Below, piece after piece: positions 1,521-64,000 of a stretch of 64,000 nucleotides of DNA. This stretch comes from a virus: the IMG/VR virus record IMGVR_UViG_3300021962_000036, positions 1 to 64,000 of that record. The stretch is one strand, 5' to 3'. The first letter of the stretch is position 1. Every line of letters starts with the position of its first letter. The position numbers and the translations under genes are program-made. The notes beneath the pieces were generated by a model. That model did no database searches and was not told the DNA's origin. It was given only the letters and a program-made list of their open reading frames with translations.

Positions 1521-3404
1521 TTAGATTGTTATTTTCTCTTTGATAAGTTTGTCAACTTTCTTAGACATGTAATTTACTAAATCTTTTGGAAGATTTTTGA
1601 TATCTGTCATCTGAATAAAGTAGTCAAACATTTCTTTAGAAGGAACATGTTCTTCAATAGCAATCTGAATAACTTGGAAACCTAGTAACTGAGCACGCGT
1701 AACTTTCTTACGTGTATCATCAATTGCACTACGTCCTCCATATCCAGATGCACTTGGAGCACCATCTGATAATACAATAAGTAAACCTTGATTTTCTGTT
1801 TGACCACGCATACGTCTAGCTGCAGCAAATATAGCATCACCGTCTCTATTGTTTGCATGTGCTTCAACAGAACCAAGAGAAAAAGAATCTGTTATATATC
1901 CTTTTTCACGATATACTGTCATGTCAACAGAATCTCTACCATTTGTATCAGCAGTGTGACCATAGATAAACAATTCTACATCAGGCATTTTCTTGAAAAC
2001 TTCATTAATAAAAATTGCAGCTTCTCTTGCTTTTTGAATTTTAGAACCTCCCATAGATCCAGACTCATCAATAAGAACACCAACGCAAACTTTGCTTGTT
2101 GTTACTTGACCAAATCTTTCATAAATAGTAGGAACTTGTTGAGCAGCTTCTGCAATCTTATTAGTATCCAAACGTCCTGAACGCATAGATTTCATGCTAA
2201 ACTCATAGTTTTTACTCTTGCGAGAAAACAACTTTTGTAACACAGCAGCTTTTGTTGTGTCAATTTTAGTTATAGCATCTCTATATTTATCTTTAGAACG
2301 TGTGTTTACTTCAGCTTTTTTCCAGTAAACATTTCCTTGAGAAGTTTCACCTTCATCATCCCAATTGAAATCTGACTTTGGTGGACTTGGAGCAGTTTCA
2401 GACATATCATCTACGAAATCTTCAAACTCACCACTAAAATCTTCACCACCAGGAGAGCCTTCTTCAGGATTAATCAATGCAGCCATCATTTCTTTGGCAA
2501 AGTCATTTAGTTCAGACTTATCCATTTCAGGTTTTGGCTTGCTTGGACTTGGCGTACCAGTTCCTTCAGAGTCATCTTCATCAGATTCATCTTCACCAGA
2601 TCCACCACCTCCAGGAGGTTCTTCTTCTTTTTCAGTATATTTGTATACAATGTTTGATAAACTTGTTGCCATACTAGCACAACTATCATAATCATTTGGT
2701 ATACCACCATGCTTCTTAAGAATACGTTCCATTGCTTTCAAAGGTTCAGCAAAATCTTCCATGTCTTCTTCAGAAATATTAGCTGGATAGCGTAACATTT
2801 TTACCACAAGATCAAGTAAACGTTTTTGCTTTGGTTCTTCTACACCAGGTCCTTCATAGTTTTCAAATCTATGTTCTTTGTATTTTTGTACAAACTTTAA
2901 ATAACCAGGAAGACGGTCTGCAAGTTTCTTGTCAATACGTTCTGTGTTTAATACACTTGTAATCAAGTCTTTAACACTAACTCCTTTTGAAGTGTCACGC
3001 AATAACATTGTCTTGTTATATTCTTGTGTTGTCTGCATTGTTGCAAGAGCAGCATTTTGAATAGCAGCGCCATAAAAAGCATCTAATAACTTTTCATCTC
3101 TGTCAAGGTACTTACCATCTTCATCTCTAAGCATGCTTAAAGGTACTTGAACTTTGGCATCTGTATAACCTCTTTTAGATGTTTGGATATCATTAGAATA
3201 CTTAAATGTTTTAGGTACACCAATAACTCTAAACATAGAGCCAATCATTTTAGAAGCTTCCTTCAGTGAGTTGTCATTTCTGATAAAGTATGAAGAGTAT
3301 GAACTCCTATCTTTATCCCAGTTGAAGAAACGCTTTGATTCATCATTGAATGTATACGCGTCTTCAGCTCTTCTGTTAAACCAGTCTTTTACTAATTTGC
3401 TCAT
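1521..3404 (-). CDS. vWA-domain protein (CobT-like MoxR partner)
   Basis: SGRLD, MIDAS motif IDESGSM, NRDG, VLSDGAP; acidic Gly-rich linker; adjacent to a MoxR ATPase. Confidence 0.88.
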   Translation of the reverse strand: MSKLVKDWFNRRAEDAYTFNDESKRFFNWDKDRSSYSSYFIRNDNSLKEASKMIGSMFRVIGVPKTFKYSNDIQTSKRGYTDAKVQVPLSMLRDEDGKYLDRDEKLLDAFYGAAIQNAALATMQTTQEYNKTMLLRDTSKGVSVKDLITSVLNTERIDKKLADRLPGYLKFVQKYKEHRFENYEGPGVEEPKQKRLLDLVVKMLRYPANISEEDMEDFAEPLKAMERILKKHGGIPNDYDSCASMATSLSNIVYKYTEKEEEPPGGGGSGEDESDEDDSEGTGTPSPSKPKPEMDKSELNDFAKEMMAALINPEEGSPGGEDFSGEFEDFVDDMSETAPSPPKSDFNWDDEGETSQGNVYWKKAEVNTRSKDKYRDAITKIDTTKAAVLQKLFSRKSKNYEFSMKSMRSGRLDTNKIAEAAQQVPTIYERFGQVTTSKVCVGVLIDESGSMGGSKIQKAREAAIFINEVFKKMPDVELFIYGHTADTNGRDSVDMTVYREKGYITDSFSLGSVEAHANNRDGDAIFAAARRMRGQTENQGLLIVLSDGAPSASGYGGRSAIDDTRKKVTRAQLLGFQVIQIAIEEHVPSKEMFDYFIQMTDIKNLPKDLVNYMSKKVDKLIKEKITI

Positions 3405-3416
3405 ATGAATGTATTT

Positions 3417-3446
3417 AAAAAAAGAGGGAGTATTTCATCCCTCTTT
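3417..3446 (-). terminator. intrinsic terminator between the ATPase and vWA genes
   Basis: Stem AAAGAGGGA/TCCCTCTTT with a U-run on the minus strand. Confidence 0.6.
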
Positions 3447-3461
3447 ATAATTTTGGTATGC

Positions 3462-4748
3462 TTAAAAAGCAGAAACAATAGAAAGTACTTTGCTACGCTC
3501 AGATACACCAATACCATCTTCAAACAAAGGCATGATTGTAGCAAGCAATGCTTTATCTACATCAAAACCATCTGCAATAAGACTTGCAGCTTGAAGTGTA
3601 TGACGAACAGAAACAGCTGTTGAAAGTTCTTGCTCTTTGTACTGCTTGCGTATCTCATTAGATACACGTACAATTGCAGTTGCAAACTTTTCATCAATTC
3701 CTGTACGTAACTTAAGAATGTTTACCTCATCTTTTTCAATTGGGTAATCAAGTTCTATAGGAAAAAATCTGTCCAACAATGCACGGTCAATTGAATGAGT
3801 ACCTGAATACTCAGAACCAAGGTTAGCAGTTGCAAAGAACACAGTGTTCTCATTAACAGCAATCCTACGATCACAATCTTCACATGCAATATCTACTGGT
3901 AAGTAACGTCTTTTATCCAAACATGGAAACAAGATATTATTTGCAGCAAGAGGTGAACGATTCAACTCATCTAACAACATAATACCACCAGCTTGAATGT
4001 TATTAACAAAAGGAGCAAACTCAAATGATGAGTGACCTTCATTGTTCAAACGGTGAACGCCAAGTAATGCTGATTGAGCATCTTGAACAGTACCCATGTC
4101 TTGGATGTACATGTTTCTTTCCATTGCAAGTGCAAGGTGAGATACAATTTCTGTTTTACCAGAACCTGTTGGCCCTATAAGCAAAGTGTTTTCCCCTCTC
4201 AATACATTTCTCACAAGCAAGAACCACATGTCTGGATCAATGTGGAAACCACAGTCATCAACAGAAGGTACAGGGTAATTTGCTGCAATAGTACGTTTAA
4301 GGTTTGTTCCTGAAGGAATTTCACCTGCAACAGTTGGTTTTGGAGCTATCATTGCGTCCCAGTCATATTCATAACCATAAGATGCAAATTGCTCTGCCAT
4401 TGCTTTTGCTTTTTCAATGCCATATAACTCACTGTCAATCATGTAATTAACAGTAAATTCAGCCATTTCTTGTAAACGAGCTTTTTCAAGATGTGCTAAT
4501 GGAAAAACTGTGCTATCATAAAACATAGCAACTACATTCTCTTTGCGAATGTGTAAATGGTCATCTTCTGGAAAATCATATCCATCTGTAATGAATATTG
4601 TTCCCAATGGATACTTTGCAAACTCAGCAATTGGAGATGTAATTTTCATGTCATCCATGTGACGTGTCAAAGTTTTCTCAAAAGATTGTTTAGGTAGAGT
4701 CTTAACTTGGTAGCTTGTGCCGCTGATAATTGATTGTAATAAAATCAT
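3462..4748 (-). CDS. MoxR/CobS-like AAA+ ATPase
   Basis: Walker A GPTGSGKT, Walker B LLDELNR, sensor ATAN, DRALLDRF, SVR. Confidence 0.92.
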   Translation of the reverse strand: MILLQSIISGTSYQVKTLPKQSFEKTLTRHMDDMKITSPIAEFAKYPLGTIFITDGYDFPEDDHLHIRKENVVAMFYDSTVFPLAHLEKARLQEMAEFTVNYMIDSELYGIEKAKAMAEQFASYGYEYDWDAMIAPKPTVAGEIPSGTNLKRTIAANYPVPSVDDCGFHIDPDMWFLLVRNVLRGENTLLIGPTGSGKTEIVSHLALAMERNMYIQDMGTVQDAQSALLGVHRLNNEGHSSFEFAPFVNNIQAGGIMLLDELNRSPLAANNILFPCLDKRRYLPVDIACEDCDRRIAVNENTVFFATANLGSEYSGTHSIDRALLDRFFPIELDYPIEKDEVNILKLRTGIDEKFATAIVRVSNEIRKQYKEQELSTAVSVRHTLQAASLIADGFDVDKALLATIMPLFEDGIGVSERSKVLSIVSAF

Positions 4749-14565: not shown

Positions 14566-14638
14566 GCCTTCTTAGCTCAATTGGTAGAGCAGCTGATTTG
14601 TACTCAGCAGGTTGTGGGTTCAACTCCTACAGAAGGCT
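14566..14638 (+). tRNA. tRNA-Thr(UGU)
   Basis: Cloverleaf GCCTTCT/AGAAGGC, anticodon arm GCTGA-TTTGTAC-TCAGC, T loop TTCAACT; CCA not encoded. Confidence 0.92.
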
Positions 14639-14670
14639 CAAATTTTTAATAACTAACAAACAAAAAAAGA

Positions 14671-15237: not shown

Positions 15238-15312
15238 GGCGGGGTAGACTGGAGTTGGTCCCAGCTTGGTCTCATAAGCCAAACAACGTAGGTTCAAATC
15301 CTACCCCCGCAA
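15238..15312 (+). tRNA. tRNA-Met(CAU), initiator-like
   Basis: GCGGGG/CCCCGC acceptor with 1:72 mismatch, loop CTCATAA, T loop TTCAAAT. Confidence 0.85.
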
Positions 15313-15376
15313 CAAAAGGTGCATGCCATGCAGGAGTCGCCAGTACCGCACTGATGTAAGTGTAAAAAAAGCATAC

Positions 15377-28318: not shown

Positions 28319-28762
28319 ATGGACTTTGCTGGACAATATAAAACCTTGAAAAGAACATCAACAGGATATCCTGCTGCAACGTCATGTGAAGCTCAAACTG
28401 CAGCATGTGTTACTGAATTAATGAACGCCTCTGTTAGCTTTCACAAATTACATTTGAAAGTTACAGGACTTGGTTCATTTTCTGCACATAAAGCATTGAA
28501 TGAGTTATATGATTCTTTGCCAGGTCATGCTGACGCTGTAGCTGAAGGATTTCAAGGAGCATCAGAAAAATTGCTAAATTATGAAGATTCTGCTCCAAGA
28601 ATTTTGAATTCTGTAGAAGAAGCGTTATCTTATTTAAGAGAGATGAAAGAGATGGTATCTGGATTACAAACAATAACACCATATAGTGAAGTTGTAAATG
28701 ACTTAGATAACATTAAAAGTACTATCAACTCTATTAAGTATAAATTGTTATTCTTAAAGTAA
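28319..28762 (+). CDS. ferritin/Dps-like four-helix-bundle protein
   Basis: HKLHL...HKALNELYD......DAVAEGFQG...KYKLLFLK. Confidence 0.7.
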   Translation: MDFAGQYKTLKRTSTGYPAATSCEAQTAACVTELMNASVSFHKLHLKVTGLGSFSAHKALNELYDSLPGHADAVAEGFQGASEKLLNYEDSAPRILNSVEEALSYLREMKEMVSGLQTITPYSEVVNDLDNIKSTINSIKYKLLFLK

Positions 28763-29994: not shown

Positions 29995-30035
29995 AAAGAA
30001 GGAGGAGAAGGGTGCAACTCTTCCCTCCTTTTTTT
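29995..30035 (+). terminator. intrinsic terminator
   Basis: GGAGGAGAAGGG-TGCAA-CTCTTCCCTCC followed by T7. Confidence 0.8.
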
Positions 30036-30098: not shown

Positions 30099-30707
30099 AT
30101 GGCAATAAAACATATTCTGGCATTAGATATTCCAGACACAGCATGTGATACTATTCTAAAAATTTGGGATAGTTCTAGTTATGCTGAGACGTTACCTGTA
30201 GACTGTCCTAGGTTAGACATATTCTTTCCTGGATTTGCAGAACCCTTATATATTACAGAACCAAAGATTGCTCCAGGTTTTGCCCTTAATTTGAATGCTA
30301 AAGACTTTAGTTTACAACATCCTCAAGCAGAGCATTTGATTTCTTTGCCTGATGGTTTATATACAATCAAATACAGTGTTTCTCCTAATGATAAAGTATT
30401 TGTTGAATATTATCATTTGAGAACAACAACAATAATGAATGCGTATTACAAGGAACTTTGTAAAGTACAATTAGCACCTTGTGAACCTTCACCAGAGCAA
30501 CATCAAAAACTACATGATTTACGTTATATAAAAATGTACATTGATGCTGCAAAAGCTAAGACAGAATATTGTCATTCACCTAAGCAAGGTGTTGAAATGT
30601 TAGCATATGCTGACAAATTGCTTAAAAAATATATGACTGGCTGTTGCGTTAGTTGCAGTGGATCACACGGAGGTTATACTCATGGATCACATGGTCATCA
30701 TCACTAA
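30099..30707 (+). CDS. structural protein with Cys/His-rich tail
   Basis: LPDGLYTIKYSVSPN; C-terminus GCCVSCSGSHGGYTHGSHGHHH. Confidence 0.75.
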   Translation: MAIKHILALDIPDTACDTILKIWDSSSYAETLPVDCPRLDIFFPGFAEPLYITEPKIAPGFALNLNAKDFSLQHPQAEHLISLPDGLYTIKYSVSPNDKVFVEYYHLRTTTIMNAYYKELCKVQLAPCEPSPEQHQKLHDLRYIKMYIDAAKAKTEYCHSPKQGVEMLAYADKLLKKYMTGCCVSCSGSHGGYTHGSHGHHH

Positions 30708-30734
30708 GACAAATTATTTAAAACCAATTATAAG

Positions 30735-30923
30735 ATGAACTGTCAAAACTGTGGATCAAAATTATCATGTGGATGTCAAAAAAGAATTGCATCAGATGGT
30801 AAAGAAGTATGTGGCACATGTGCTGCAAACTATGAGAATCAACTTAGATTGAAAGCACTAACTGATAATCAAGTGGCTAAATACCCTTTGATTACAGATG
30901 TAAATAAAACAAACAACACATAG
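30735..30923 (+). CDS. small Cys-rich protein
   Basis: CQNCG...CGCQ...CGTC. Confidence 0.7.
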   Translation: MNCQNCGSKLSCGCQKRIASDGKEVCGTCAANYENQLRLKALTDNQVAKYPLITDVNKTNNT

Positions 30924-30924
30924 T

Positions 30925-31149
30925 ATGGATCCAATAGAACGCATAAGTGAAGTATTTGCTGATTCAGTATTTGTTTCCTACAAGAAAACACGTTATGGTT
31001 TAAAATCTTGTAAGATGACAATTGACGCAGAATACGCAAATGATTTGAGAGAACTTTATTTAAGAACTCTTGAAATGAACACTTGTGGGTTAACTTTTGG
31101 TGGTGGTTGTTCAAAAATTAGTATTGAAGAAAAAATCAAGACAATATAA
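30925..31149 (+). CDS. hypothetical protein
   Basis: 74 aa, coupled to its neighbours. Confidence 0.65.
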   Translation: MDPIERISEVFADSVFVSYKKTRYGLKSCKMTIDAEYANDLRELYLRTLEMNTCGLTFGGGCSKISIEEKIKTI

Positions 31150-32711
31150 TGAAACCTATAAACAGCAACTTAAGATTAAAACCTGAAGATGGATGCACAA
31201 AAGTATCATCTTCATGCGTTATCTGGCAAGGTCCAGATATTCCTTGTATTGAATTATGCAAAGGAGACTCAATTACAGATGTTGTTTATGAGTTAGCAAT
31301 GAAGTTGTGTGAAATAACTTCTGGAGTTATTGATCTTAGTACACTAGATTTTAAATGCTTAGTGCCAACAGGTATTCCTGAACCAACTACAATTATTCAA
31401 GCATTACAGTTGCTTATTGATAAGCAATGTTTTTTTGAAGAAAATTGTTGTGATGATGGACCTGGTGGTAGTACAGTACCTATTCCTATTTCATTACCTC
31501 CATGTTTATATTTTACAGAAGATGGAGATGAAATAACATCTTTACTTCCAACTGATTACAGTTCTTATTTAGCAAGTAAAATTTGTGAAATTATAGATGA
31601 TATTACAAGTATCAATTCTACCATTGCAACATTGCAAAATAGAGTCACTACATTAGAAGCAAGTTCTGGTGGAGGTGGTGGTACTGGAGCAACAATATCT
31701 GTTGTTGCACAGTGTGCTAGTAATCCTATACCTGGAACAGTTGTTCCTATTGGCCAAGCATTTTCTGCATTTGAAAGTAAGTTTTGCCAATTAACAACAA
31801 TTCTTGGAAGCAATGCTGCGTTATCAACTGCGATTGGTACAGAATGTGCAGGATTAGACTCAGCTCCACAACTAGTCAATGGTGATAATACAATGTCAGA
31901 AATTGCAGGTTGGGTTGCTTCTCCATCAACTTTGTCAGAAACCATAGTAAACATGTGGTTGACAATATGTGATATGAGATCTGCAATTGTAAATAGTTTG
32001 AACACTACAATACCATGTATTCCAATTCCTGTATCTAATATTCAAATAACAGATGTAACAAGCACAGGTTCTAAAATAACTTGGTCTGCTCCAAATAATG
32101 GAACTGTGTCAGAATCACCTTTACAATATTTACTAAAAGTATATGAGTGGAATGGTTCATCAACAGTAGGTTCACCTATTGTTAGTGTTATCAAACCTTT
32201 TGGAACAAATTTTCATGACATAACACTTGTTCCTGATCCAGCAAAAGATTATCAAATACAAATTACAGCTGAATATTCTTGTGATCTGTCTACTGTTGCA
32301 ACTACCATTGGTAAAATTGCTTTGACAACTGTCCTATATTGTGTAGCTGTAACAGATGTTGCATATGATGAAATCAATCAATTATGTGATGGTAATTCAT
32401 ATGTTACAAAAAGAAGAAAAACAACCCTTACACTAAAAGATATAGTTTCAGGTAATCCTGTAGCAAATACTTTAGCACCATTTACTGCTGTAATTAATTA
32501 TGACATAGATGGAGATTGTGCTTTAATTACTTCAGAATCAATTACAAAAACATTTGCAACAGGTGTTTCTAGTGTAGATCATATTTATGAAATGGAAAAA
32601 TATGTTCAATGTGCATCAGATCCATGTGCTCCTAAGATTAAATCCTACAATTGTATTGGAAGTATCTCAAGCACAAGAGCTGTAGCATGTAGTGGTGAGG
32701 TAACTTGTTAA
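31149..32711 (+). CDS. Cys-rich fibre/decoration protein with coiled coil and FN3-like domain
   Basis: N-terminal CVIWQGPDIPC module; coiled coil ITSINSTIATLQNRVTTLE; FN3-like PVSNIQITDVTSTGSKITWSAP. Confidence 0.75.
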   Translation: MKPINSNLRLKPEDGCTKVSSSCVIWQGPDIPCIELCKGDSITDVVYELAMKLCEITSGVIDLSTLDFKCLVPTGIPEPTTIIQALQLLIDKQCFFEENCCDDGPGGSTVPIPISLPPCLYFTEDGDEITSLLPTDYSSYLASKICEIIDDITSINSTIATLQNRVTTLEASSGGGGGTGATISVVAQCASNPIPGTVVPIGQAFSAFESKFCQLTTILGSNAALSTAIGTECAGLDSAPQLVNGDNTMSEIAGWVASPSTLSETIVNMWLTICDMRSAIVNSLNTTIPCIPIPVSNIQITDVTSTGSKITWSAPNNGTVSESPLQYLLKVYEWNGSSTVGSPIVSVIKPFGTNFHDITLVPDPAKDYQIQITAEYSCDLSTVATTIGKIALTTVLYCVAVTDVAYDEINQLCDGNSYVTKRRKTTLTLKDIVSGNPVANTLAPFTAVINYDIDGDCALITSESITKTFATGVSSVDHIYEMEKYVQCASDPCAPKIKSYNCIGSISSTRAVACSGEVTC

Positions 32712-32740
32712 TTAAATAGAAACAAATAAAATATAATATA

Positions 32741-34342
32741 ATGTATCCTAATCAATATTGTCATCCTTGCACAGAGCCAACACCATGTGTTCCAGCTCCA
32801 CCACCACCAGATTGTATAGGTGAACCATGTGAAGAAATTGTTCTAGACACATGTGTAAGATATACAGGACCTGCAATTCCATGTCTTGGAATTACTACAG
32901 GTGCAGATCTTAGTCAAGTACTACAAATTATTGCAGCAAGACTTTGTGATTGTTGTGATGGAACACCTCCAGTTGTAAATTGCGTAGTTTCTGCATGGTC
33001 AGAATGGTCAGAATGTATAGATGGTGTTCAGACAAGAACTAGAACAGTAATTCAAGCTCCACAAAATGGCGGTACTGCTTGTCCTCCATTAATAGAAACA
33101 AGATCATGTTGTGAGCCTGTTGACTGTGTAGTATCTGCATGGAGTGATTGGTCAATTTGTGATGGGGATGTTAGAACAAGAACAAGAACTGTTGTTACGC
33201 CAGCATCATGTGGTGGAGTAGCTTGTCCTGTTTTAATTGAAACAGAATCTTGTAACTTACCATTGCCATGTCAACCAATAACAAATATTCTTGGTAGATC
33301 ATTAGATTGTGAAACAATTGAAGTATCATTTTCAGATGGAGCTACAGGTCCAGCAACAAGTTTAGTTGCAGAATTAGTTAGTACAAGTGCACCTTCTGTT
33401 GTTTTACAGTCATTTACTTTCACAACAACTGGCGCTGCTGCATCATATTCTCATACATTTACAGCTGTTGCTCCTGGTTCATACCTTATAAAAGTTTATA
33501 AAACTAGTGCAGCAGGAACTTGTGATGTTGTTACAACTTCTGCTGTAACAGTTGAAGTTTGCGCAACATGTGTGCCATTAACAGACATAGATGTTTTATC
33601 TGACAATTGTGAAACTTTACAAATTTCATTAACTGATGATGGAAACGCTACTGTTTTGTATGCTGAATTATTTAACAATAATGCACCAACTATAGTTGTA
33701 TCTACCAAAACATGGACTCCATTAGGATCAGCTACTGTTTATAGTCATACTTTCACAGGATTAACTCCAGGAAATTATTTTGTAAAAATTTACAAAGATG
33801 CTGGTACTGTAAAATGTGATACAGTTGTAACAAGTGCTGTTTTAGTACAAGGATGTCCTGTAGATTGTGTTGTTTCAGATTGGTCTGCATGGTCTGAATG
33901 TATTGAAGGTGAACAAACTAGAACAAGAACAATAGTTACACCTGCATCAAATGGTGGAACTCCATGTCCTGTATTGACAGAAACACAACCTTGTGAAATA
34001 CCATGTGTCCCTTTAACAAACTTTACAGCAATATCTGATAATTGTGAAACGTTAACCGTTTCAGCAGTAGATAATGGAGAAGCAACAGATTTACATGTAA
34101 CATTGTATAATGCATCTAACCCAACAGTGCCTTTATTTACTCATGATTGGATTCCTACTGGAAATCCTGGATCATACACACATACATTTACAGGTCTTTC
34201 AGGAGGAACTTATATTGCAATAATTTACAAATTGTCAGATCGTTCAACTTGTGATCCAATATCATCAGCAAATGTTGTTGTTGAAACATGTAAATCAGCA
34301 TGTCCTGCACCAACAGGAGTATCAGCTACAGTAACAGCTTAA
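32741..34342 (+). CDS. adhesin-like protein with three thrombospondin type-1 repeats and three Ig/SprB-like repeats
   Basis: 3x CVVSxWSxWSxC...TRTRT...GGxxCPxLxETxxC; 3x CET...YxHTFTxxxxGxYxxxxYK...CD. Confidence 0.85.
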   Translation: MYPNQYCHPCTEPTPCVPAPPPPDCIGEPCEEIVLDTCVRYTGPAIPCLGITTGADLSQVLQIIAARLCDCCDGTPPVVNCVVSAWSEWSECIDGVQTRTRTVIQAPQNGGTACPPLIETRSCCEPVDCVVSAWSDWSICDGDVRTRTRTVVTPASCGGVACPVLIETESCNLPLPCQPITNILGRSLDCETIEVSFSDGATGPATSLVAELVSTSAPSVVLQSFTFTTTGAAASYSHTFTAVAPGSYLIKVYKTSAAGTCDVVTTSAVTVEVCATCVPLTDIDVLSDNCETLQISLTDDGNATVLYAELFNNNAPTIVVSTKTWTPLGSATVYSHTFTGLTPGNYFVKIYKDAGTVKCDTVVTSAVLVQGCPVDCVVSDWSAWSECIEGEQTRTRTIVTPASNGGTPCPVLTETQPCEIPCVPLTNFTAISDNCETLTVSAVDNGEATDLHVTLYNASNPTVPLFTHDWIPTGNPGSYTHTFTGLSGGTYIAIIYKLSDRSTCDPISSANVVVETCKSACPAPTGVSATVTA

Positions 34343-34366
34343 CAAAAAAATAAAAAAAATAAACAA

Positions 34367-35149
34367 ATGGCAACATTAACTATAAATTTTACACCAGTAT
34401 CAGGAATATCAAGTTATGAAATTTGTTATAGACCTGTAGGTGCAACAACTCCTTTTATTTGTATAGAAGATTCCGCATCACCTGTTGTTATAACTTCAGG
34501 GATTGAATGTGGTGTTGCATATGATGTGACAGTAAGAACAAACTGCCCTCCAGGAGAATATTTATCAGACCAAAGTACATCTGCTGTTGCAGTAGCTACA
34601 GCACTAGAATGTCCTCCTGAAATAGTATGTGTATCTTACACAATATCAACATCATCAGCTCAAGGACAAACTTCAGCTTATATTGATTGCATGGATCAAA
34701 TTCAACAAGTAACTGTAGGAGGTGTTAGTGGATATGACGCAACTACATTCTGTGCAAAAGAAGGTAGCGTTGTAATAGCTGGTGAATGTAATCTAACAAT
34801 TAATGGCCCATGTGGTGACCCAGTAGGTCCAATTACAGTAACTGGTGCGTATGGTTCAATGGAACCATGTATTGGCGGTACAATTGATGATTATATGAGT
34901 GCTAGTGTTAGTTTAGATGCTCCAGTTTCTGTAGACACAAATTTTAACGTAAATGTTTTATGGACTCAGTTAAATGGTGGCAGTTGTGCCAGTCCTAATA
35001 CTCAATCATTTACAGTTCTTGTACTAGCTGGGCAAGTATCTGGTCAATTAAATGCATGTAATCAAGGAGCTTATTTTGCACAAGGAGCATCTATTTGTGC
35101 AGCTCAAGTAATGGGTCATGACAACACAGTTGACATAATTAATTACTAA
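34367..35149 (+). CDS. Cys-rich beta protein starting with an FN3 domain that lacks its first strand
   Basis: ATLTINFTPVSGISSYEICYRPVG...YDVTVRTNC. Confidence 0.75.
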   Translation: MATLTINFTPVSGISSYEICYRPVGATTPFICIEDSASPVVITSGIECGVAYDVTVRTNCPPGEYLSDQSTSAVAVATALECPPEIVCVSYTISTSSAQGQTSAYIDCMDQIQQVTVGGVSGYDATTFCAKEGSVVIAGECNLTINGPCGDPVGPITVTGAYGSMEPCIGGTIDDYMSASVSLDAPVSVDTNFNVNVLWTQLNGGSCASPNTQSFTVLVLAGQVSGQLNACNQGAYFAQGASICAAQVMGHDNTVDIINY

Positions 35150-35203: not shown

Positions 35204-35235
35204 GTGCCCCTGGCGAAAGCTGGGGGTATCTTTTT
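35204..35235 (+). terminator. intrinsic terminator
   Basis: GTGCCCCTGGC-GAAA-GCTGGGGGTAT followed by CTTTTT. Confidence 0.8.
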
Positions 35236-39091: not shown

Positions 39092-39462
39092 TGGCTGCTA
39101 AAATATTTAAAAAAAAAATAAATCTTGCTATCTATGAAGCTGTAGTAAACTTACGCGTTGTAGAAAGTATGCAAGACATGCAAGAGTATCTTGACAAAAA
39201 AACTAAATCTTTAGTAGATGTTACAGATAGTTATGGATGTGTTTTTGATTTACCTGGTGCAAAAGGATTGGAATATTATATTGTTTATGAAAAAGATAAA
39301 CTTACTATAAATTTAATCTCTCATGAGGTATATCATTTAGCTATTAGAATTTTAACAAACATAAACATAACAGATGAGGAATCAACTGCATGGTTAGTAG
39401 GTTACTTGACAGAAACAATATATAAAGTATTACGTCAGAAAAATTACAACATCAAAGACTAA
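39091..39462 (+). CDS. small zincin-like metallopeptidase
   Basis: HExxH motif ISHEVYH plus downstream DEESTAWLVGY. Confidence 0.65.
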   Translation: MAAKIFKKKINLAIYEAVVNLRVVESMQDMQEYLDKKTKSLVDVTDSYGCVFDLPGAKGLEYYIVYEKDKLTINLISHEVYHLAIRILTNINITDEESTAWLVGYLTETIYKVLRQKNYNIKD

Positions 39463-42400
39463 TGAGCGAAAATTTTACAAATACAAGTGCTGCCAAAACT
39501 AATGCCTTCAACAAAGGTATGGTTAAAGACTATACTGATATTTACATTTCAGAAGGTCTTTGGACTAATGCAGTAAATGCTATAAACAATGCTCACTATG
39601 GTGAGACAGGCTCTATTGGCAATGAGCCATCTAATAAGTTTTGTGCAAACGCAACTTATGATGTTATTGGTATTTCTCACAAAACTAAAACTTCTTGGGT
39701 TGTATTTTCTACAGATGATGTTTCTTCTGAGATTGGTATTTTTGATGAAAGAGATTGCTCATATACAGTAATTGTAAATGATCCATGCCTTGGTTTTAAG
39801 AAAACAAACTTGATCACAGCAGTTACAAAAGAAAACTATGACTGCACACATTCAACATATTTTCAGGATAACTTAAATCCTGATAGAGTTTTAAACTTAG
39901 ACAGAGTTCCTTATAAAACAACAGGAAACAACTTGTCTCAGGATCCAGATTGTTTTATTCCTGAATACACAACTGACTTAGATTGTGATGCACTAAGATT
40001 ACATCCTCTTGTAACACAACCATGTGTAAATGTAAAAAAAGCACAAGGAGCTGGCCAATTAAATAATGGTAGTTATATGGCAGTTGTAGCTTATTCTGAA
40101 AACGGAATAAGACTTACAGATTACTCACTACCTAGTCAACCACAAGCATTGTGGGATCATACTGGAATTGGTGGATCTTTGGATATTACTATTGACAATC
40201 TAGACAAAGACTATGATGAGTATGAACTTGTTGTTATTGCTGTAATTAATCAACAAACTATAGCAAAAAAGGTTGGTTATTATTCAACTAGGCAAACATC
40301 AGTACATCTTGACTTGTACAATCAAAGTTTAGAAACTGTTGAACTTGCAGTAATACCTTTAAAATCAATAGTTTATGAAAAGAGTGAAAAAATGCACTCT
40401 GTAAATAACTATCTTATCAGAACAGGAGTTACTACACAACCATACTTTAATTATCAAAAACAAGCAAATGATATAAAAGTGCAGTGGGTTGCTGCACAAT
40501 ATCCTACAGATTATTACCATAATGGAGGTAATGTTACAGGATACATGCGTGATGAGGTGTATGCCTTTTTCATTAGATGGGTTTATAAAACAGGAGCAAG
40601 AAGTGCTTCTTTTCATATTCCTGGTAGGTTGTCTACAGGAGTTGACACAAACCCTGTATCAACACCTGACGTTATTTATCCTACAGAAACTAAAGTGTGG
40701 CAAGTATATGATACTGCAACAAAATATTTAGCATCTGGTACTACCAAAGATGGTGGTGTTATCATTGCTAAAGGAGACATGGCATACTGGGAATCAACAG
40801 AAAAATATCCTGATGACAAACCAGATGTTTGGGGTACACTATGTGGTAAACCAATTAGACATCACAAAATGCCTTCAAATGAAACTATACATATCCATAG
40901 TCAAGGAGGAGATTATATTTATAATTTAGGTGTTGAGTTTTCAAATATTCAACATCCTGTAGATGAGACACTTACTCCAATTAAAGATATTGTAGGATAT
41001 GAGATATTAAGAGGATCTAGAGAAGGAAACAGAACTATTGTTGCGAAAGGTTTATTTAACAACATGTTTGAGTTTAATATTCAAGGAAGTACTGGAAGAA
41101 AAGGTTTGTTCCAGAATTATCCTTACAATGATATTAGACCAGATAACTTCTTAACAAACGATTTTTCAGTTCTTGATTCTGGTAGAGGAAGTCAATCTGG
41201 TGTTGAGTCAGCATCTAAACTTGACACTCACAAAAGAAACTATTTATCTTTTCATGCTGTAGAAACAAATTTTGTTAAACCATATATTGGTTCTAACTAC
41301 GTAAAAGTATATACAGAAGAAAGAGGAACTGTAACAGGTAAGTATGAGTTTCCACATAAACATCCTAAACATGTAATTTTAACTGATGGTGCGTTTGTAA
41401 CAGCAGGTATTGTTGGTTTAGGAATTGCACTTGTACAAGCTGTTGGTAAAACAACATTGACATCAGAAGTTGCTCCATGGGCTTTAGCTTTAGGTACTGG
41501 ATTTTATTATGGTGGAACACAAGTAAGTAAAGAATCAGCACCAGCATCTATTATTGGTGATTTAACAACATATGGTATTACATCAGGTCTTTCAGGATTT
41601 GGTGCAGGAAATGCCGCAGCTGCTATTGCATCTGTTGCAGTAATGATTGTTAGTGGTACTTATTATTGGGGACAAGCTACTGATCAAGTTTTGGATATAT
41701 TTAGAAAACTTGGTAAGGATAGACAATACATGCTTCAATACAATAGTCATGGATTCTATCATTCATATTCAGGCGTATCTAACTCTGCAGTACCTTCAGG
41801 ATTACCAAAAGCATTTAGAAGAAAGATTGCTGATTCAGGAGCAAAATATATTGGTTCTGGGATTCATGATTTAGATGCTACATATAGAATTAACAATCTT
41901 AATAGAAACAAATATGTAGCTATTAAATTAACTTCTGATTTACCAGATGTATCATCAACAATAGATAATACAAAACATAGAATTCAAGATGGTGGAATAG
42001 ATCGTTCTAATCCTACAAAAGAATCAATTAGTACAACAACAGTTGCATATTATGGTGCATTAAAAGTAGATTTTGAAAATCAGTATGGTCAATTAACATC
42101 AGTTGTTCAATTACCTACAGATTCTTGCATATACGCAACTGAACCACAACTTACAACTCTTTATACTACATCAACAATATTTGGTGGAGACATCTATATT
42201 AATAGATACACTGAAAAGAATCCATACATGTTCTTTAACACATGGATGTATGATATGCCAACTGGTACAGAATATGATTACAAAAATTATGTAAATGGTC
42301 CTGTTCCAAGATATTGGATAAACTTTGATAAATTTGATGTCACAGATTTTGATGTTAATATAAGTTTGTCAAATGGTGTAAGTTTTACAACGCCTAGTGA

Positions 42401-45077
42401 CTTCCATAGAATGGATAGAGCAGGTAGTACTGGTACATGGACTTTGAGAAACTGCTTTGCATATCTTTTCCATAACGGTATTAGAGACTTTTATACAGAA
42501 TCTGAACTTAACATGGCGTTTAGAGACTATGGTGAAGAAGATTTTCAAAAGTTCTATGATGTATATGGTAACTCATTTAATGATGAGGCTACTATGTTTA
42601 GATCAGATTTGATAACTAAACCAATATATAACAAATATGACTTATCACTTAGCACATCCAAGTTGTTTAACAACTTCGCGACATGGGGACAAATTCTCCC
42701 TAGGGACTATGACCCAGCCATATACAACACATGCTTTGAGTACTACCCTAAACGTGGAGTGTACTCTCTCCAACAGCAGTCAGGTCTTAAACGCGATAAC
42801 TGGAGAAACTTCTTACCTCTTAACTATAAAGATTTTGGAGGAAAAATCAACACAATAAAGTCACTGAATGGAACAGGTGCTATAATACTTTTTGAAGATG
42901 CTGAACCTACACAATTTGTAGGTGTTGATCAATTGCAGACTAAAGGTGGTGTAAAAATCACAATTGGTGATGGAGGATTGTTTCAACAAAACATGCAAAG
43001 TCTTGTAAATGCAGATGATGCGTTGGAGTATGGAGCATGCATTTCTTCAAGATCTGCAGTAAATACACCACATGGTTTATTTTATGCTTCTCAGAAGTCA
43101 GGTAAAATTATGCATTATTCTGGTGGCATTGATGAGATATCAAGAAATGGATTGAAGTTTTGGTTTGCTGAAAATTTACCTTCAGAACTATTACGTCAAT
43201 ATCCAGACTATCCATTATATGATAATCCAGTAGCAGGTATTGGAGTACAAGCAATTTATGATCCTCAATATGAATTAGTATACTTTACAAAGAAAGACTA
43301 TATTCCTTTGAGATCAGATTTACACTTTGATGACCCTTCTGGTGTACCATATTATATTTGTGGAACTACTGGTGATATTGACATACCATCTGAAATAGTC
43401 TCAACAAGTATGTTGGAAACTCCAACAACACTTGCTGAAGATCCAGATGCACCATGTAAAGCACCATTAGATTTAGTTTTTGTTATTGACATTACAGGAA
43501 GTATGGGAACTGTTTTAAATAACATTAAAACAAGTGTTGCTAATATTGCTACTGATGCTGTGACAAAATCAAATAATGATTATAGATTTGGATTAATAAC
43601 TGTGAATCAATCTGGTAGTGTTCTTAACGTTGTAAGAGAAGTAATGTCTGCAAATAATGTTGCAACATTTAACACTGCATTACAAGTTGTTACATTGGGA
43701 AGTGGTGGCGGTGAACCAGAACCTACAGACATAGGTGTTAAGATGGTATTAGATGGACAAGCAGGAGTTTTCAGATCAAATGCTATCAAAATGATTATTA
43801 TGGTTACAGATGCTAGACCATCTGGTACTGATGATGCTTATGTTGTAGGTGTTGATGATGTAAATGTTCAAAATGTTTCAAATCAAGCATTAGCTCAGGA
43901 TGTTTTAATATTCCCTATTGCAACAGGTTATGGAGTTAGTGGTCAATATGCATCTACTATTTTACCATTGCATGACATTTATGCAAATACTACAGGAGGT
44001 GTTGCAAGTCAATCACTTACTGGAATTGTAGCAGATATAATTGGTGATTCTATTTTAAATGTACCATGTCCAGAAGTACCATTAGAATGTACTTTTGAAT
44101 CTAATCCATATACTATAAATTTAGGACAATCAATAACGTTGACATGGTCTGTACTTGGTACACCAGAATCTGTAGTATTAATGCCAAATAATGTTGTGGT
44201 AAACGCAACAGGTTCATTGACAGTATCACCAGTTGTAAACACTATTTATCAATTGATAAGTACTAAAGGTGATGTAACAAATATTTGTGAATTAGAAGTT
44301 ATTGTAGTTCAACCAGAAATAATTCAGTGTCCATGCGCATATGATGATCCTAAATGTTTTACTCCATGTGGTTGGACAATCAGTTATGATCCAAAGCAAA
44401 AATTATGGATAAGTTTTCATGATTGGAAACCTAGTTTATTAATGCCTTCACATGAGCACTTCTTTACAATTAAAGGCAGAGGATTTTGGAAACACAATGA
44501 TAGATGGGATAGTTTTGCAAATTACTATGGAGTAGATTATCCATGGGAAGTAGAATATCCTGTGACAACACCTAATAGCGTAACAACTCTTAGAAGTATA
44601 GAATATACACTAGATGTATATAAGTTCTTCAATGATGGTAAAGATTTCAATCATGTACTTGATGAAAACTTTGACAGAGCTATTATACATAACTCAGAGC
44701 AAATGTCTGGTTTGTTGAAACTTAAAATTAAAGGTAAAAACAATCCTTTAGAATTGGTCAATTACCCACAAGCAACAGCTAATGGTATTGACATACTATT
44801 CTCTAAAGAAGAAAACAAATTTAGATTTAATCAATTTTGGGATATTACAAAAGATAGAGGTGAGTTTACAGGTAATGATACACCAATGTGGATTACAAAA
44901 TGTTCAGGTTATGAAAGATCAATTAATCCTAATTATGTAAACTACTTTAAGACACCAACTGAACATAAAAAATTCAGACACTATGGAAACAAAGTGATCT
45001 TACGCAAAAATGTAAGTGGTGACAAGAAAATGATTTTAAAACTAACAAATTCAAAACATCTTAATAGTTCAAGATAA
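39462..45077 (+). CDS. tail stabilization / muzzle protein with inserted vWA and Ig-like domains
   Basis: 1871 aa; FNKGM..D start, GYMRDEVYAF, WTISY...WISFHDW; position before the cargo genes as in crAss-like phages. Confidence 0.75.
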   Translation: MSENFTNTSAAKTNAFNKGMVKDYTDIYISEGLWTNAVNAINNAHYGETGSIGNEPSNKFCANATYDVIGISHKTKTSWVVFSTDDVSSEIGIFDERDCSYTVIVNDPCLGFKKTNLITAVTKENYDCTHSTYFQDNLNPDRVLNLDRVPYKTTGNNLSQDPDCFIPEYTTDLDCDALRLHPLVTQPCVNVKKAQGAGQLNNGSYMAVVAYSENGIRLTDYSLPSQPQALWDHTGIGGSLDITIDNLDKDYDEYELVVIAVINQQTIAKKVGYYSTRQTSVHLDLYNQSLETVELAVIPLKSIVYEKSEKMHSVNNYLIRTGVTTQPYFNYQKQANDIKVQWVAAQYPTDYYHNGGNVTGYMRDEVYAFFIRWVYKTGARSASFHIPGRLSTGVDTNPVSTPDVIYPTETKVWQVYDTATKYLASGTTKDGGVIIAKGDMAYWESTEKYPDDKPDVWGTLCGKPIRHHKMPSNETIHIHSQGGDYIYNLGVEFSNIQHPVDETLTPIKDIVGYEILRGSREGNRTIVAKGLFNNMFEFNIQGSTGRKGLFQNYPYNDIRPDNFLTNDFSVLDSGRGSQSGVESASKLDTHKRNYLSFHAVETNFVKPYIGSNYVKVYTEERGTVTGKYEFPHKHPKHVILTDGAFVTAGIVGLGIALVQAVGKTTLTSEVAPWALALGTGFYYGGTQVSKESAPASIIGDLTTYGITSGLSGFGAGNAAAAIASVAVMIVSGTYYWGQATDQVLDIFRKLGKDRQYMLQYNSHGFYHSYSGVSNSAVPSGLPKAFRRKIADSGAKYIGSGIHDLDATYRINNLNRNKYVAIKLTSDLPDVSSTIDNTKHRIQDGGIDRSNPTKESISTTTVAYYGALKVDFENQYGQLTSVVQLPTDSCIYATEPQLTTLYTTSTIFGGDIYINRYTEKNPYMFFNTWMYDMPTGTEYDYKNYVNGPVPRYWINFDKFDVTDFDVNISLSNGVSFTTPSDFHRMDRAGSTGTWTLRNCFAYLFHNGIRDFYTESELNMAFRDYGEEDFQKFYDVYGNSFNDEATMFRSDLITKPIYNKYDLSLSTSKLFNNFATWGQILPRDYDPAIYNTCFEYYPKRGVYSLQQQSGLKRDNWRNFLPLNYKDFGGKINTIKSLNGTGAIILFEDAEPTQFVGVDQLQTKGGVKITIGDGGLFQQNMQSLVNADDALEYGACISSRSAVNTPHGLFYASQKSGKIMHYSGGIDEISRNGLKFWFAENLPSELLRQYPDYPLYDNPVAGIGVQAIYDPQYELVYFTKKDYIPLRSDLHFDDPSGVPYYICGTTGDIDIPSEIVSTSMLETPTTLAEDPDAPCKAPLDLVFVIDITGSMGTVLNNIKTSVANIATDAVTKSNNDYRFGLITVNQSGSVLNVVREVMSANNVATFNTALQVVTLGSGGGEPEPTDIGVKMVLDGQAGVFRSNAIKMIIMVTDARPSGTDDAYVVGVDDVNVQNVSNQALAQDVLIFPIATGYGVSGQYASTILPLHDIYANTTGGVASQSLTGIVADIIGDSILNVPCPEVPLECTFESNPYTINLGQSITLTWSVLGTPESVVLMPNNVVVNATGSLTVSPVVNTIYQLISTKGDVTNICELEVIVVQPEIIQCPCAYDDPKCFTPCGWTISYDPKQKLWISFHDWKPSLLMPSHEHFFTIKGRGFWKHNDRWDSFANYYGVDYPWEVEYPVTTPNSVTTLRSIEYTLDVYKFFNDGKDFNHVLDENFDRAIIHNSEQMSGLLKLKIKGKNNPLELVNYPQATANGIDILFSKEENKFRFNQFWDITKDRGEFTGNDTPMWITKCSGYERSINPNYVNYFKTPTEHKKFRHYGNKVILRKNVSGDKKMILKLTNSKHLNSSR

Positions 45078-63999: not shown

Positions 64000-64000
64000 T

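Follow-up and report, generated by a model that had tools for sequence, protein, structure and literature searches.

Why would a crAss-like phage carry thrombospondin type 1 repeats (TSRs), and do such repeats bind surfaces or build the particle? We addressed this question for the open reading frame (ORF) at 32741-34342 (+ strand) in a 64,000-nucleotide (nt) stretch, hereafter the window, which is the first 64 kb of the 119,946-bp IMG/VR record IMGVR_UViG_3300021962_000036 (CheckV completeness 99). Excerpts of Aravind et al. 2012 (PMC3417536) treat TSP1 as an adhesion domain of the animal lineage that was later passed to apicomplexans. A preliminary description of the window had read three eukaryote-type TSRs in a phage structural gene and suggested that the virion may adhere to sulfated glycans or eukaryotic surfaces. 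Our best explanation of the whole, to which we assign a probability of roughly 0.6, is that the gene encodes the proximal subunit of a disulfide-rich surface fibre with TSRs as spacer rods.

Identity and layout of the thrombospondin repeats

The product of this ORF has 533 amino acids (aa), 37 of them cysteines (6.9%), and an isoelectric point (pI) of 4.24. It matches the Pfam profile TSP1_spondin (PF19028) in three stretches with 124 bits (E 2.8e-36; cut-off 41) and TSP_1 (PF00090) with 50.4 bits (cut-off 21.6). The scan with these two profiles, which the preliminary description had proposed as a check, bore out its call of three repeats within 32975-33995, including the motifs it had named. 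When the TSP1_spondin profile was run on the DNA of the entire 119,946-bp genome, it matched at exactly three places (32981-33115, 33125-33262 and 33866-33997), each of which exceeds the cut-off by itself (54.9, 43.9 and 52.7 bits for TSR1, TSR2 and TSR3), and it matched none of 14 control genomes. The matches are far beyond chance.

Unit alignment places TSR1 at 32981-33109 (residues 81-123, with an extra Cys124 after the unit), TSR2 at 33125-33253 (residues 129-171, with Cys157 in addition at unit position 29) and TSR3 at 33866-33994 (residues 376-418), all on the + strand. Each is a four-cysteine unit of 43 residues. Nine units, of this phage and of two relatives, were aligned, and C1, S4, W6, W9, C12, T18, R19, R21, T22, G31, C34, P35 and C43 are the same in all of them. 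W6 and W9 correspond to the WxxW(xxW) layers of strand A, the first position of which is Val, and R19 and R21, inside TRxRT, to the arginine ladder of strand B. Sequence and profile searches of solved structures gave in-register alignments of the units to TSRs found in complement C8alpha, C7, C8beta, C9 and C6, UNC5B, MIC2 and R-spondin-2; C8alpha reached E 2e-9 with the unit profile, and the complement TSRs were the best sequence matches among solved structures. The canonical TSR has six cysteines in three bonds, and the units of this protein have four, which by alignment sit at the positions of the group-2 A/C-strand and AB-loop/C-terminus cysteines. Judged by sequence, the units are genuine TSP1/spondin-type repeats, and they are predicted to adopt the TSR fold. 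A recent duplication was rejected, since the DNA repeats seen are only 20-24 nt long and imperfect.

The domain order along the protein is an N-terminal anchor (residues 1-80), TSR1, TSR2, beta-module 1, beta-module 2, TSR3, beta-module 3 and a 13-residue tail (residues 521-533). The preliminary description had seen the TSRs interleaved with three Ig-like repeats; there are indeed three of each, and the order TSR-TSR-B-B-TSR-B makes them only loosely interleaved. The anchor, or adaptor, domain (32741-32980, +) is rich in cysteine (10 Cys in 80 residues), falls in no Pfam family and is 77-100% identical in 18 homologues. Repeat alignment delimits beta-module 1 (33254-33562, +; residues 172-274), beta-module 2 (33563-33856, +; residues 275-372, with YSHTFTGLTPGNY) and beta-module 3 (33995-34300, +; residues 419-520, with YTHTFTGLSGGTY), which are beta-rich, comprise about 96 residues and four cysteines each and share 45-47% mutual identity. 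Two copies contain the motif Y(S/T)HTFTGLxxGxY and the third contains YSHTFTAVAPGSY; by this alignment the modules are real repeats. Their best Pfam match is GBD_IRG7_N in beta-module 2, with 27 bits exactly at the cut-off, followed by Y_Y_Y, SdrD_B and fn3_3 below their own cut-offs. A search of solved structures (PDB) with the beta-module profile gave a best E of only 1.9, and the same profile had one weak match (E 0.005) in three Bacteroidota genomes. These modules may have an Ig-like fold. The resemblance to Bacteroidota SprB repeats that had been noted for them did not hold up, as PF13573 has no match in the phage genome at E <= 1 and SprB is absent from the Pfam matches at E <= 1. The C-terminal tail, CPAPTGVSATVTA (34301-34339, +), contains a lone invariant cysteine, Cys521, and resembles strand A of an fn3-type domain.

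By its gene content the phage is crAss-like: the terminase matches phrog_6681 (E 1.5e-64), the portal phrog_6547 (E 5.3e-85), the capsid Crass_capsid PF23898 (E 5e-33) and the tail rings CrAss_Ring_2 (E 2.5e-21) and CrAss_Ring_1 (E 4.3e-9). Sequence comparison also sets it far from cultured phages, with the closest capsid among 15 matching records, that of the cyanobacterial Leptolyngbya phage Lbo-JY46, at 27% identity. The TSR gene, with the capsid block on one side and the tail-ring genes just downstream, is part of a putative transcription unit of six genes (30099-35149) enclosed by two terminator-like hairpins on the + strand, one upstream at 30007-30023 and one after a 260-aa ORF at 35204-35229 (11 pairs, 6 GC). 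Within this unit it is preceded by a paralogous, anchor-bearing, fibre-like ORF of 520 aa (31149-32711, +; BLASTP E 2e-4 against the TSR protein), which contains a second, partial copy of the anchor (anchor profile E 1.4e-7 at 31194-31328) and a weak, sub-threshold fn3 match (19 bits), and it is followed by the 260-aa ORF (34367-35149, +). Cysteine makes up 4.8% of the 520-aa, 6.9% of the TSR and 5.4% of the 260-aa product, versus 0% of the capsid and 0.2% of the portal protein. The TSR gene is very probably a virion gene of the phage that encodes a fibre. The structural setting given in the preliminary description is thus supported by the capsid and ring genes around it, and its label of eukaryote-type TSRs is not, given the 39 viral loci described below and the bacteria that have TSR proteins of their own.

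A search of 5.8 billion proteins returned 467 matches at E <= 0.001 among 7,999 scored candidates. The top ~22 of those form the phage clade, several of them on 120-123 kb contigs, and then come multi-TSR proteins whose named sources are only oomycetes. The related viral loci retain full synteny on independent contigs. All 19 sequences of an alignment contain the anchor, TSR1 and TSR2 (77-100%, 72-97% and 57-95% identical to the window, respectively), the beta-modules are 14-81% identical or absent in the 18 homologues, and after TSR2 the homologues are shuffled, with 2 to about 7 TSRs, different beta-module types and other inserts. In comparison with the 97% identical homologue P0001, beta-module 3 is the fastest-changing part (90% identity versus 95-100% in all other segments). 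The ratio of nonsynonymous to synonymous substitution (dN/dS) is 0.11-0.45 in every segment compared, indicating purifying selection on all, and the synonymous distance (dS) between relatives is 0.4-1.0, from which we conclude that the TSR gene has long resided in phages. The fall in identity from the anchor and TSR1/TSR2 to the beta-modules is compatible with a proximal stalk whose distal end varies.

The anchor itself defines a broader family. Its profile matched 348 representative proteins, 68 of them at E <= 1e-10, nearly all from their own residue 1 and with lengths of 56-2,050 aa. Among the best 150, 113 proteins are at least 150 aa long and 34 of these 113 have a TSR motif, usually at residue ~80-88. 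A Pfam scan of 77 anchor-family proteins located TSP1_spondin directly after the anchor in 23 (E <= 1e-5), of which 17 exceed the cut-off. In each of the 12 proteins that have a DUF5122 beta-propeller head, a TSR separates the anchor from the propeller, and other heads among the 77 (Fib_succ_major, LRR, PKD, Ig_7, fn3 and K1-lyase_C) occur without a TSR. At the small end of the family, P0126 (92 aa) consists of an anchor and a donor-like tail only, and P0121 (288 aa) and L048, L051 and L055 (all 288-294 aa) consist of an anchor, four TSRs and a tail only.

A pattern-seeded scan of viral contigs confirmed 50 of 53 pattern matches, corresponding to 39 distinct loci in four groups. Group A is the 'MYPN.YC' anchor family of crAss-like phages, with 1 to 5 TSRs per protein. 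Group B consists of phrog_14478 proteins of 1,482-2,471 aa that carry C-terminal arrays with as many as 11 Pfam-confirmed TSRs; their cultured relatives in Cellulophaga, Flavobacterium, Tenacibaculum and Maribacter phages bear the annotation 'structural protein' and lack TSRs. Group C contains proteins of ~170 aa with a single TSR, of which one is encoded on a contig of a Flavobacterium metagenome-assembled genome (MAG) beside a group-B-type protein, and group D contains membrane-anchored proteins of giant-virus MAGs. We extracted 262 units to count cysteine layouts. The four-cysteine form accounts for 36/41 units in phage group A, 62/62 in group B and 3/3 in group C; the six-cysteine form accounts for 66/78 units in bacteria and 32/45 in giant viruses, and three named eukaryote proteins have 11 units of the four-cysteine and 12 of the six-cysteine form. 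On these layouts, the phage four-cysteine units are a coherent, trimmed, phage-typical TSR subfamily that occurs in at least three phage protein contexts.

A predicted stalk and its possible joint with the tip protein

We propose a disulfide-rich surface fibre on the crAss-like particle, with the TSR protein as its proximal subunit. The 80-residue N-terminal domain of this protein would anchor the fibre to the virion, and the four-cysteine TSRs would act mainly as short rigid rods that determine how long and how stiff the stalk is. In the tandem pair, the extra cysteine after one unit would bond the extra cysteine in the next (Cys124-Cys157) and so staple the rods. The variable beta-sandwich modules, together with the Cys-rich tip domain of the separate 260-aa protein, would make up the distal, probably ligand-binding end, and the 13-residue tail probably plugs into that next protein as the missing first strand of an fn3-like domain. 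The disulfides would be made after release, away from the reducing cytoplasm. A search for phage-encoded disulfide machinery gave no Erv1/Alr or thioredoxin match.

We favour a spacer role of the TSRs because of their charge, their position next to the anchor, the minimal forms made of anchor, TSRs and tail, and the stapling. The mean net charge is -1.73 for group A units (0/33 at +2 or higher) and -1.21 for group B units (0/42 at +2 or higher), and the 2.8-2.9 Lys and Arg residues per unit in both groups are those of the ladder only. Excerpts of Tan et al. 2002 (PMC2173040) link strong glycosaminoglycan (GAG) binding to additional basic residues surrounding the TSR's front face. None of the 75 units has the positive front face with extra basic residues that would indicate GAG or heparin binding. 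The suggested binding of sulfated glycans is therefore not supported and runs against the chemistry of the units, the protein as a whole having a pI of 4.24, and nothing in these results links the phage to eukaryotic surfaces. The stapling is suggested by a covariation of cysteines. We compared 87 distinct phage units of 43 residues, leaving out 4 of other length: Cys29 is found in 15/15 units that are preceded by 'CC' and in 0/72 others, in counts drawn from related sequences for which a Fisher p-value overstates independence. This pattern fits an inter-repeat disulfide, here probably between Cys124 and Cys157. According to excerpts of PMC6954052, some TSRs fold in bacteria without glycosylation, and a TSR made in a bacterium is therefore plausible. 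Our best reading is that the TSRs are rigid, length-setting stalk modules of a virion fibre, with their rigidity predicted from the sequence.

The 260-aa ORF (34367-35149) combines an N-terminal fn3-like domain without strand A, the 'acceptor' (MATLTINFTPV...), with the Cys-rich C-terminal tip domain, for which Pfam, NCBIfam and Atlas gave no match. The TSR ORF and this ORF are separated by an in-frame TAA at 34340 and 24 A-rich nt before the ATG, and when CPAPTGVSATVTA and MATLTINFTPV... are read jointly they look like strands A and B of one fn3-type domain. We surveyed this joint at 14 loci, some of which come from the same or near-identical contigs (L037, L039, L044, L047, L048 and L057 are included): all nine TSR ORFs ending in C[PT]xPTxL are followed, 15-32 nt on, by one to three ORFs that start with MAxxTxN[FW]TP, and none of the five with other endings has such an acceptor ORF next. 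The genome studied here has a single acceptor and a single donor. P0005 combines a TSR stalk and a counterpart of the 260-aa ORF's tip domain (50% identity, E 1e-49) in one polypeptide, and the stalk and the tip domain therefore belong to one structure. Read-through or recoding of the TAA was rejected, since an A-rich spacer and an ATG follow it and the two ORFs lie in different frames in related loci; in addition, 45/50 genes end in TAA, and reading TAA as Gln leaves the fn3 profiles starting at the next ORF.

We hypothesize that the tail of the TSR protein complements the missing strand of the acceptor, and cysteine counts hint at a lone cysteine on each side of the joint. More broadly, these sequences would be compatible with a modular, pilus-like plug-and-socket fibre in which a universal anchor carries a variable number of stapled four-cysteine TSR rods and a 13-residue tail completes, and perhaps disulfide-locks, the strand-deficient fn3-like domain of an exchangeable tip protein. 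We regard this broader model as tentative and slightly more apt to fail than to hold. A literature search for donor-strand joints in phage fibres brought up no paper.

Several results weigh against the stalk or its joint. The relatedness of the units behind the covariation count is one of these. The group B arrays are C-terminal, with only 12-171 residues after them, a position that suits a distal binding role, and the Trp and Arg residues of the TSR ladder are able to bind ligands without a net positive charge. Neither PHROGs nor NCBIfam contains a match to the TSR protein. The protein also has no match at E <= 1e-3 in 50,697 deposited phage records, in which the two-TSR segment likewise has none at E <= 1. 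The anchor shows no similarity to gp29 (hhalign probability 0.04%) or gp21 (1.2%), the head fibres of PhicrAss001, and was rejected as a homologue of that type. With respect to the joint, the fn3-type profiles on the acceptor are sub-threshold, align from profile position 13-18 onward and fail to cross the stop, and the acceptor domain has no similarity to the intact fn3 of its neighbour (hhalign probability 0.1%). Nor does cysteine parity argue cleanly for a disulfide-locked joint, with 14 Cys in the window's acceptor ORF versus 13 in 4/5 orthologues.

Alternative placements and roles of the protein

The alternative that survives best, at a little under even odds in our estimate, keeps the TSRs as a stalk and moves the fibre: it would be a tail-associated side or accessory receptor-binding fibre on the tail collar, like gp22 of PhicrAss001. 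The TSR gene sits just upstream of the ring-protein genes, and the anchor family includes members with heads of tailspike or receptor type (K1-lyase C-terminal domain, Fib_succ_major, LRR and beta-propellers), both of which suit such a location. Excerpts of Bayfield et al. 2023 (PMC10172136) describe short N-terminal segments that hold each of the PhicrAss001 fibres, the head fibres gp21 and gp29 as well as the tail fibre gp22, and hubs that are disulfide-stabilised. On the other hand, the two adjacent paralogous anchors in the window recall the two head-fibre types of PhicrAss001, and no homologue of a hub protein is detectable beside the gene. The phage also has a separate, classical long tail-fibre module at ~76.1-87.8 kb of the genome, with proteins of 1,861 and 876 aa that match tail-fibre PHROGs and contain Peptidase_S74 chaperone domains; therefore, the TSR cassette is not the only or the main receptor-binding fibre. 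A 309-aa ORF with 7.1% Cys and no family match follows this module. In direct comparisons, a 384-aa ORF showed no similarity to PhicrAss001 gp36 and a 192-aa ORF none to gp38, and a 448-aa neighbour that we had considered as a tail-hub protein proved to be a generic phage metallophosphoesterase.

It is unlikely, in our view, that the TSRs are themselves adhesive and keep the phage near its host by attaching to glycans or proteins of the host cell, of algal or animal surfaces or of mucus, much as Ig-like capsid decorations attach to mucus. TSRs serve as adhesion modules in animals and apicomplexans, as excerpts of PMC2173040 and PMC3417536 describe, and phage precedents point the same way: a partial account in PMC13370021 describes modular, epithelium-binding adhesins of the Ig-like kind on gut phages, crAss-like ones among them, and head fibres of PhicrAss001 have been proposed to bind host or gut surfaces (excerpts of PMC10172136). 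The C-terminal location of the group B arrays would also favour an adhesive role, as would the observation that bacterial TSR proteins are secreted surface proteins with T9SS (type IX secretion system) or PEP-CTERM signals. Against these points stands the net acidity of the units, whose basic residues lie only in the structural ladder. Group A TSRs adjoin the anchor rather than the tip and belong to the most conserved part of the protein, not the variable one, and some members have nothing except anchor, TSRs and connector tail. The O-fucose site (CSxxCG) is deleted, and to our knowledge the glycosylation found on eukaryotic TSRs is absent from bacteria. Adhesion mediated by the TSRs may occur, though we found no positive evidence for it.

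A role outside the virion, such as inside the cell or on the host surface after expression from the late region, is a very improbable alternative. The missing PHROG match of the TSR protein would be in line with it. The translation, however, shows no evident N-terminal signal peptide, the gene sits in a structural block, and the architecture is modular and fibre-like, with an N-terminal adaptor that is common to proteins with tailspike-type heads. The second TSR-bearing family, phrog_14478, has cultured members that are annotated 'structural protein' in Cellulophaga phages.

Origin of the repeats and surroundings of the gene

Upon scanning prokaryotes with the same pattern, in one genome per species, we confirmed 25 loci of 35 pattern matches in many phyla. 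They include loci on a closed 4.7-Mb chromosome and on a 930-kb scaffold, range in GC from 0.29 to 0.76 and encode N-termini that resemble signal peptides, and 10/10 of the bacterial TSR proteins tested pass the Pfam cut-off. Sorting signals occur on several of them: Por_Secre_tail (T9SS) on Saprospiraceae and Chitinophagales proteins and PEP-CTERM on another. Such proteins are rare, as only 1/401 genomes in the phylum of the Flavobacterium MAG exceeds the cut-off, and this is the seed genome itself. In two Acidimicrobiales MAGs (L014:3257-4156 and L015), a PqqD-like domain is fused to two canonical C-terminal TSRs; the PqqD-like domain is a peptide-recognition element of pathways for ribosomally synthesized and post-translationally modified peptides (RiPPs).

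A phage unit and a unit of the Saprospiraceae T9SS protein L007 are 63% identical (hhalign probability 99.6%) and differ by one 4-residue deletion, which removes the second cysteine of CSxxCG, and thereby the O-fucose site, along with the partner of that cysteine. For the units in the window, identity is 65-77% with the best bacterial units; the ranges are 61-77% with those of giant viruses and 55-65% with those of the three sampled eukaryote proteins. The preliminary description had proposed a phylogeny against eukaryotic and giant-virus TSRs as a check. In our unit trees the phage units cluster, with 8 label changes versus 40.8 when labels were shuffled, and the test does not reject one phage clade (p-AU, from the approximately unbiased test, 0.37). 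The unit trees are poorly resolved (6/219 and 2/123 branches well supported), and therefore no donor of the TSRs can be named. Recent eukaryotic import is not indicated by these comparisons. Excerpts of PMC10136315 state that Crassvirales with known hosts infect Bacteroidetes, and groups B and C are tied to Flavobacteriia phages; a Bacteroidota host may be supposed for this phage, whose best capsid match is the cyanobacterial phage at 27%.

The three fibre-like genes (31149-35149) have the lowest GC at third codon positions (GC3) of the 50 window genes, 0.086-0.125 versus a mean of 0.242, and the highest GC at codon positions 1-2 (GC12) in the window. The low GC3 stems partly from a window-wide trade-off between GC12 and GC3 (r -0.50; cassette residual z -1.5 to -2.1), and the overall GC of the TSR locus equals that of its flanks. 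A recent direct transfer of the TSRs from a eukaryote or giant virus, or a chimeric assembly of the ORF, is hardly credible: oomycete proteins as the nearest named ones outside the phage clade in the first search, nearest Atlas clusters that are eukaryotic (score 0.90) and the low GC3 would favour it, whereas the conserved synteny on independent contigs excludes the chimera that the preliminary description had named as a possible refutation, and the GC of the flanks, the partly window-wide GC3 dip, a dS of 0.4-1.0 among relatives, the clustering of phage units and their likeness to bacterial units, at least as close as to the sampled eukaryotic ones, all argue against import.

The putative transcription unit begins with three small ORFs of 202, 62 and 74 aa (30099-31149, +) that have no family match in Pfam, PHROGs or NCBIfam. 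The first of these (30099-30923 region), upstream of the fibre genes, has a Cys/His-rich C-terminal tail, CCVSCSGSHGGYTHGSHGHHH, and is kept as a 200-202-aa ORF in the relatives L004 and L005; the 62-aa ORF, listed under the same region, has a zinc-ribbon-like CxxC...CxC...CxxC pattern. Elsewhere in the window, a Dps/ferritin-like protein (DUF5856, 53 bits; phrog_858) is encoded at 28319-28762, within the capsid gene block, and a virion protein of 1,871 aa with a VWA domain (phrog_37948) at 39462-45077 directly follows the ring-protein genes, in the place occupied by the crAss 'muzzle' protein. On the - strand at 1521-4748, a CobT-like VWA protein (626 aa) adjoins a MoxR/CbbQ-type AAA ATPase (427 aa), a pair commonly annotated as cobaltochelatase-like auxiliary genes in phages. 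Two tRNA genes, Thr-TGT and Met-CAT (14566-14639 and 15238-15313), mark the switch between leftward and rightward gene blocks, and the window contains no suppressor tRNA. A giant ORF of ~3,790 aa runs from 58723 past the window end at 64000, shows no Rfam match and no sign of stop reassignment, and is followed by a 1,965-aa ORF with a PD-(D/E)XK domain.

Comparison with known systems and significance

On sequence alone, the phage units resemble the group-2 (F-spondin/TRAP-type) TSRs of Tan et al. (excerpts of PMC2173040) in their profile match, a Cys at the start of strand A, the RxR ladder of strand B and Cys at the start and end of strand C, and the first Trp of WxxW is missing as in TRAP. 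Unlike those, they have four instead of six cysteines, no O-fucose site, a net acidic charge and a covarying extra Cys pair, and they are made in the bacterial cytoplasm and built into a phage particle. The same excerpts describe the C-terminal TSRs of complement C6-C9 without the third disulfide; these share the reduced cysteine number with the phage units, whereas they lack a different Cys pair and belong to secreted animal proteins of pore-forming complexes. The closest bacterial parallel is L007, a Saprospiraceae MAG protein with four TSRs, seven FG-GAP repeats and a T9SS Por_Secre_tail, which comes from the phylum infected by crAss-like phages. As in L007, the phage TSRs are modules of extracellular multi-domain proteins; bacterial TSR proteins such as L007 differ in being canonical six-cysteine, cell-secreted proteins that are no virion parts.

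Among virion fibres, those of PhicrAss001 (excerpts of PMC10172136) share with the fibre proposed here, as read from its genes, a crAss-type virion, an N-terminal anchor, distal beta-sandwich domains, two fibre types for two sites and disulfide-stabilised parts. They are much shorter, lack TSRs, have a different gene position and show no similarity in the anchor. The Hoc protein with its model of bacteriophage adherence to mucus (BAM), as well as the gut-phage Ig-like adhesins (partial account in PMC13370021), offer a parallel for modular beta-sandwich domains on virions with possible weak surface adhesion; there the domains are Ig-like, whereas here they are TSRs and apparently structural. 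If the joint between tail and fn3-like domain is real, it would resemble the type V pili of Bacteroidota (FimA/Mfa1, excerpts of PMC13655056) and other donor-strand-complemented fibres such as chaperone-usher pili, where one subunit supplies the missing beta-strand of the next. Strand exchange in type V pili is protease-mediated and homopolymeric, whereas the joint predicted here would connect different proteins once each.

Our literature searches brought up no description of TSRs in phage virion proteins; a mention of thrombospondin in a jumbo-phage paper turned out to be the title of a reference only. The occurrence of a four-cysteine TSR subfamily in at least three unrelated virion-protein contexts, in crAss-like phages and in relatives of Flavobacteriia phages, would widen the known range of this fold and suggests that compact TSRs can fold independently of glycosylation in a bacterial environment. 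It also suggests a modular design of phage fibres, made of anchor, rods, plug and exchangeable tip, that bears on the host range and particle adhesion of abundant uncultured phages. If the plug-and-socket model is true, TSRs would be a general 'ruler' module of uncultured Bacteroidota-type phages, taking the place of coiled coils or collagen-like repeats.

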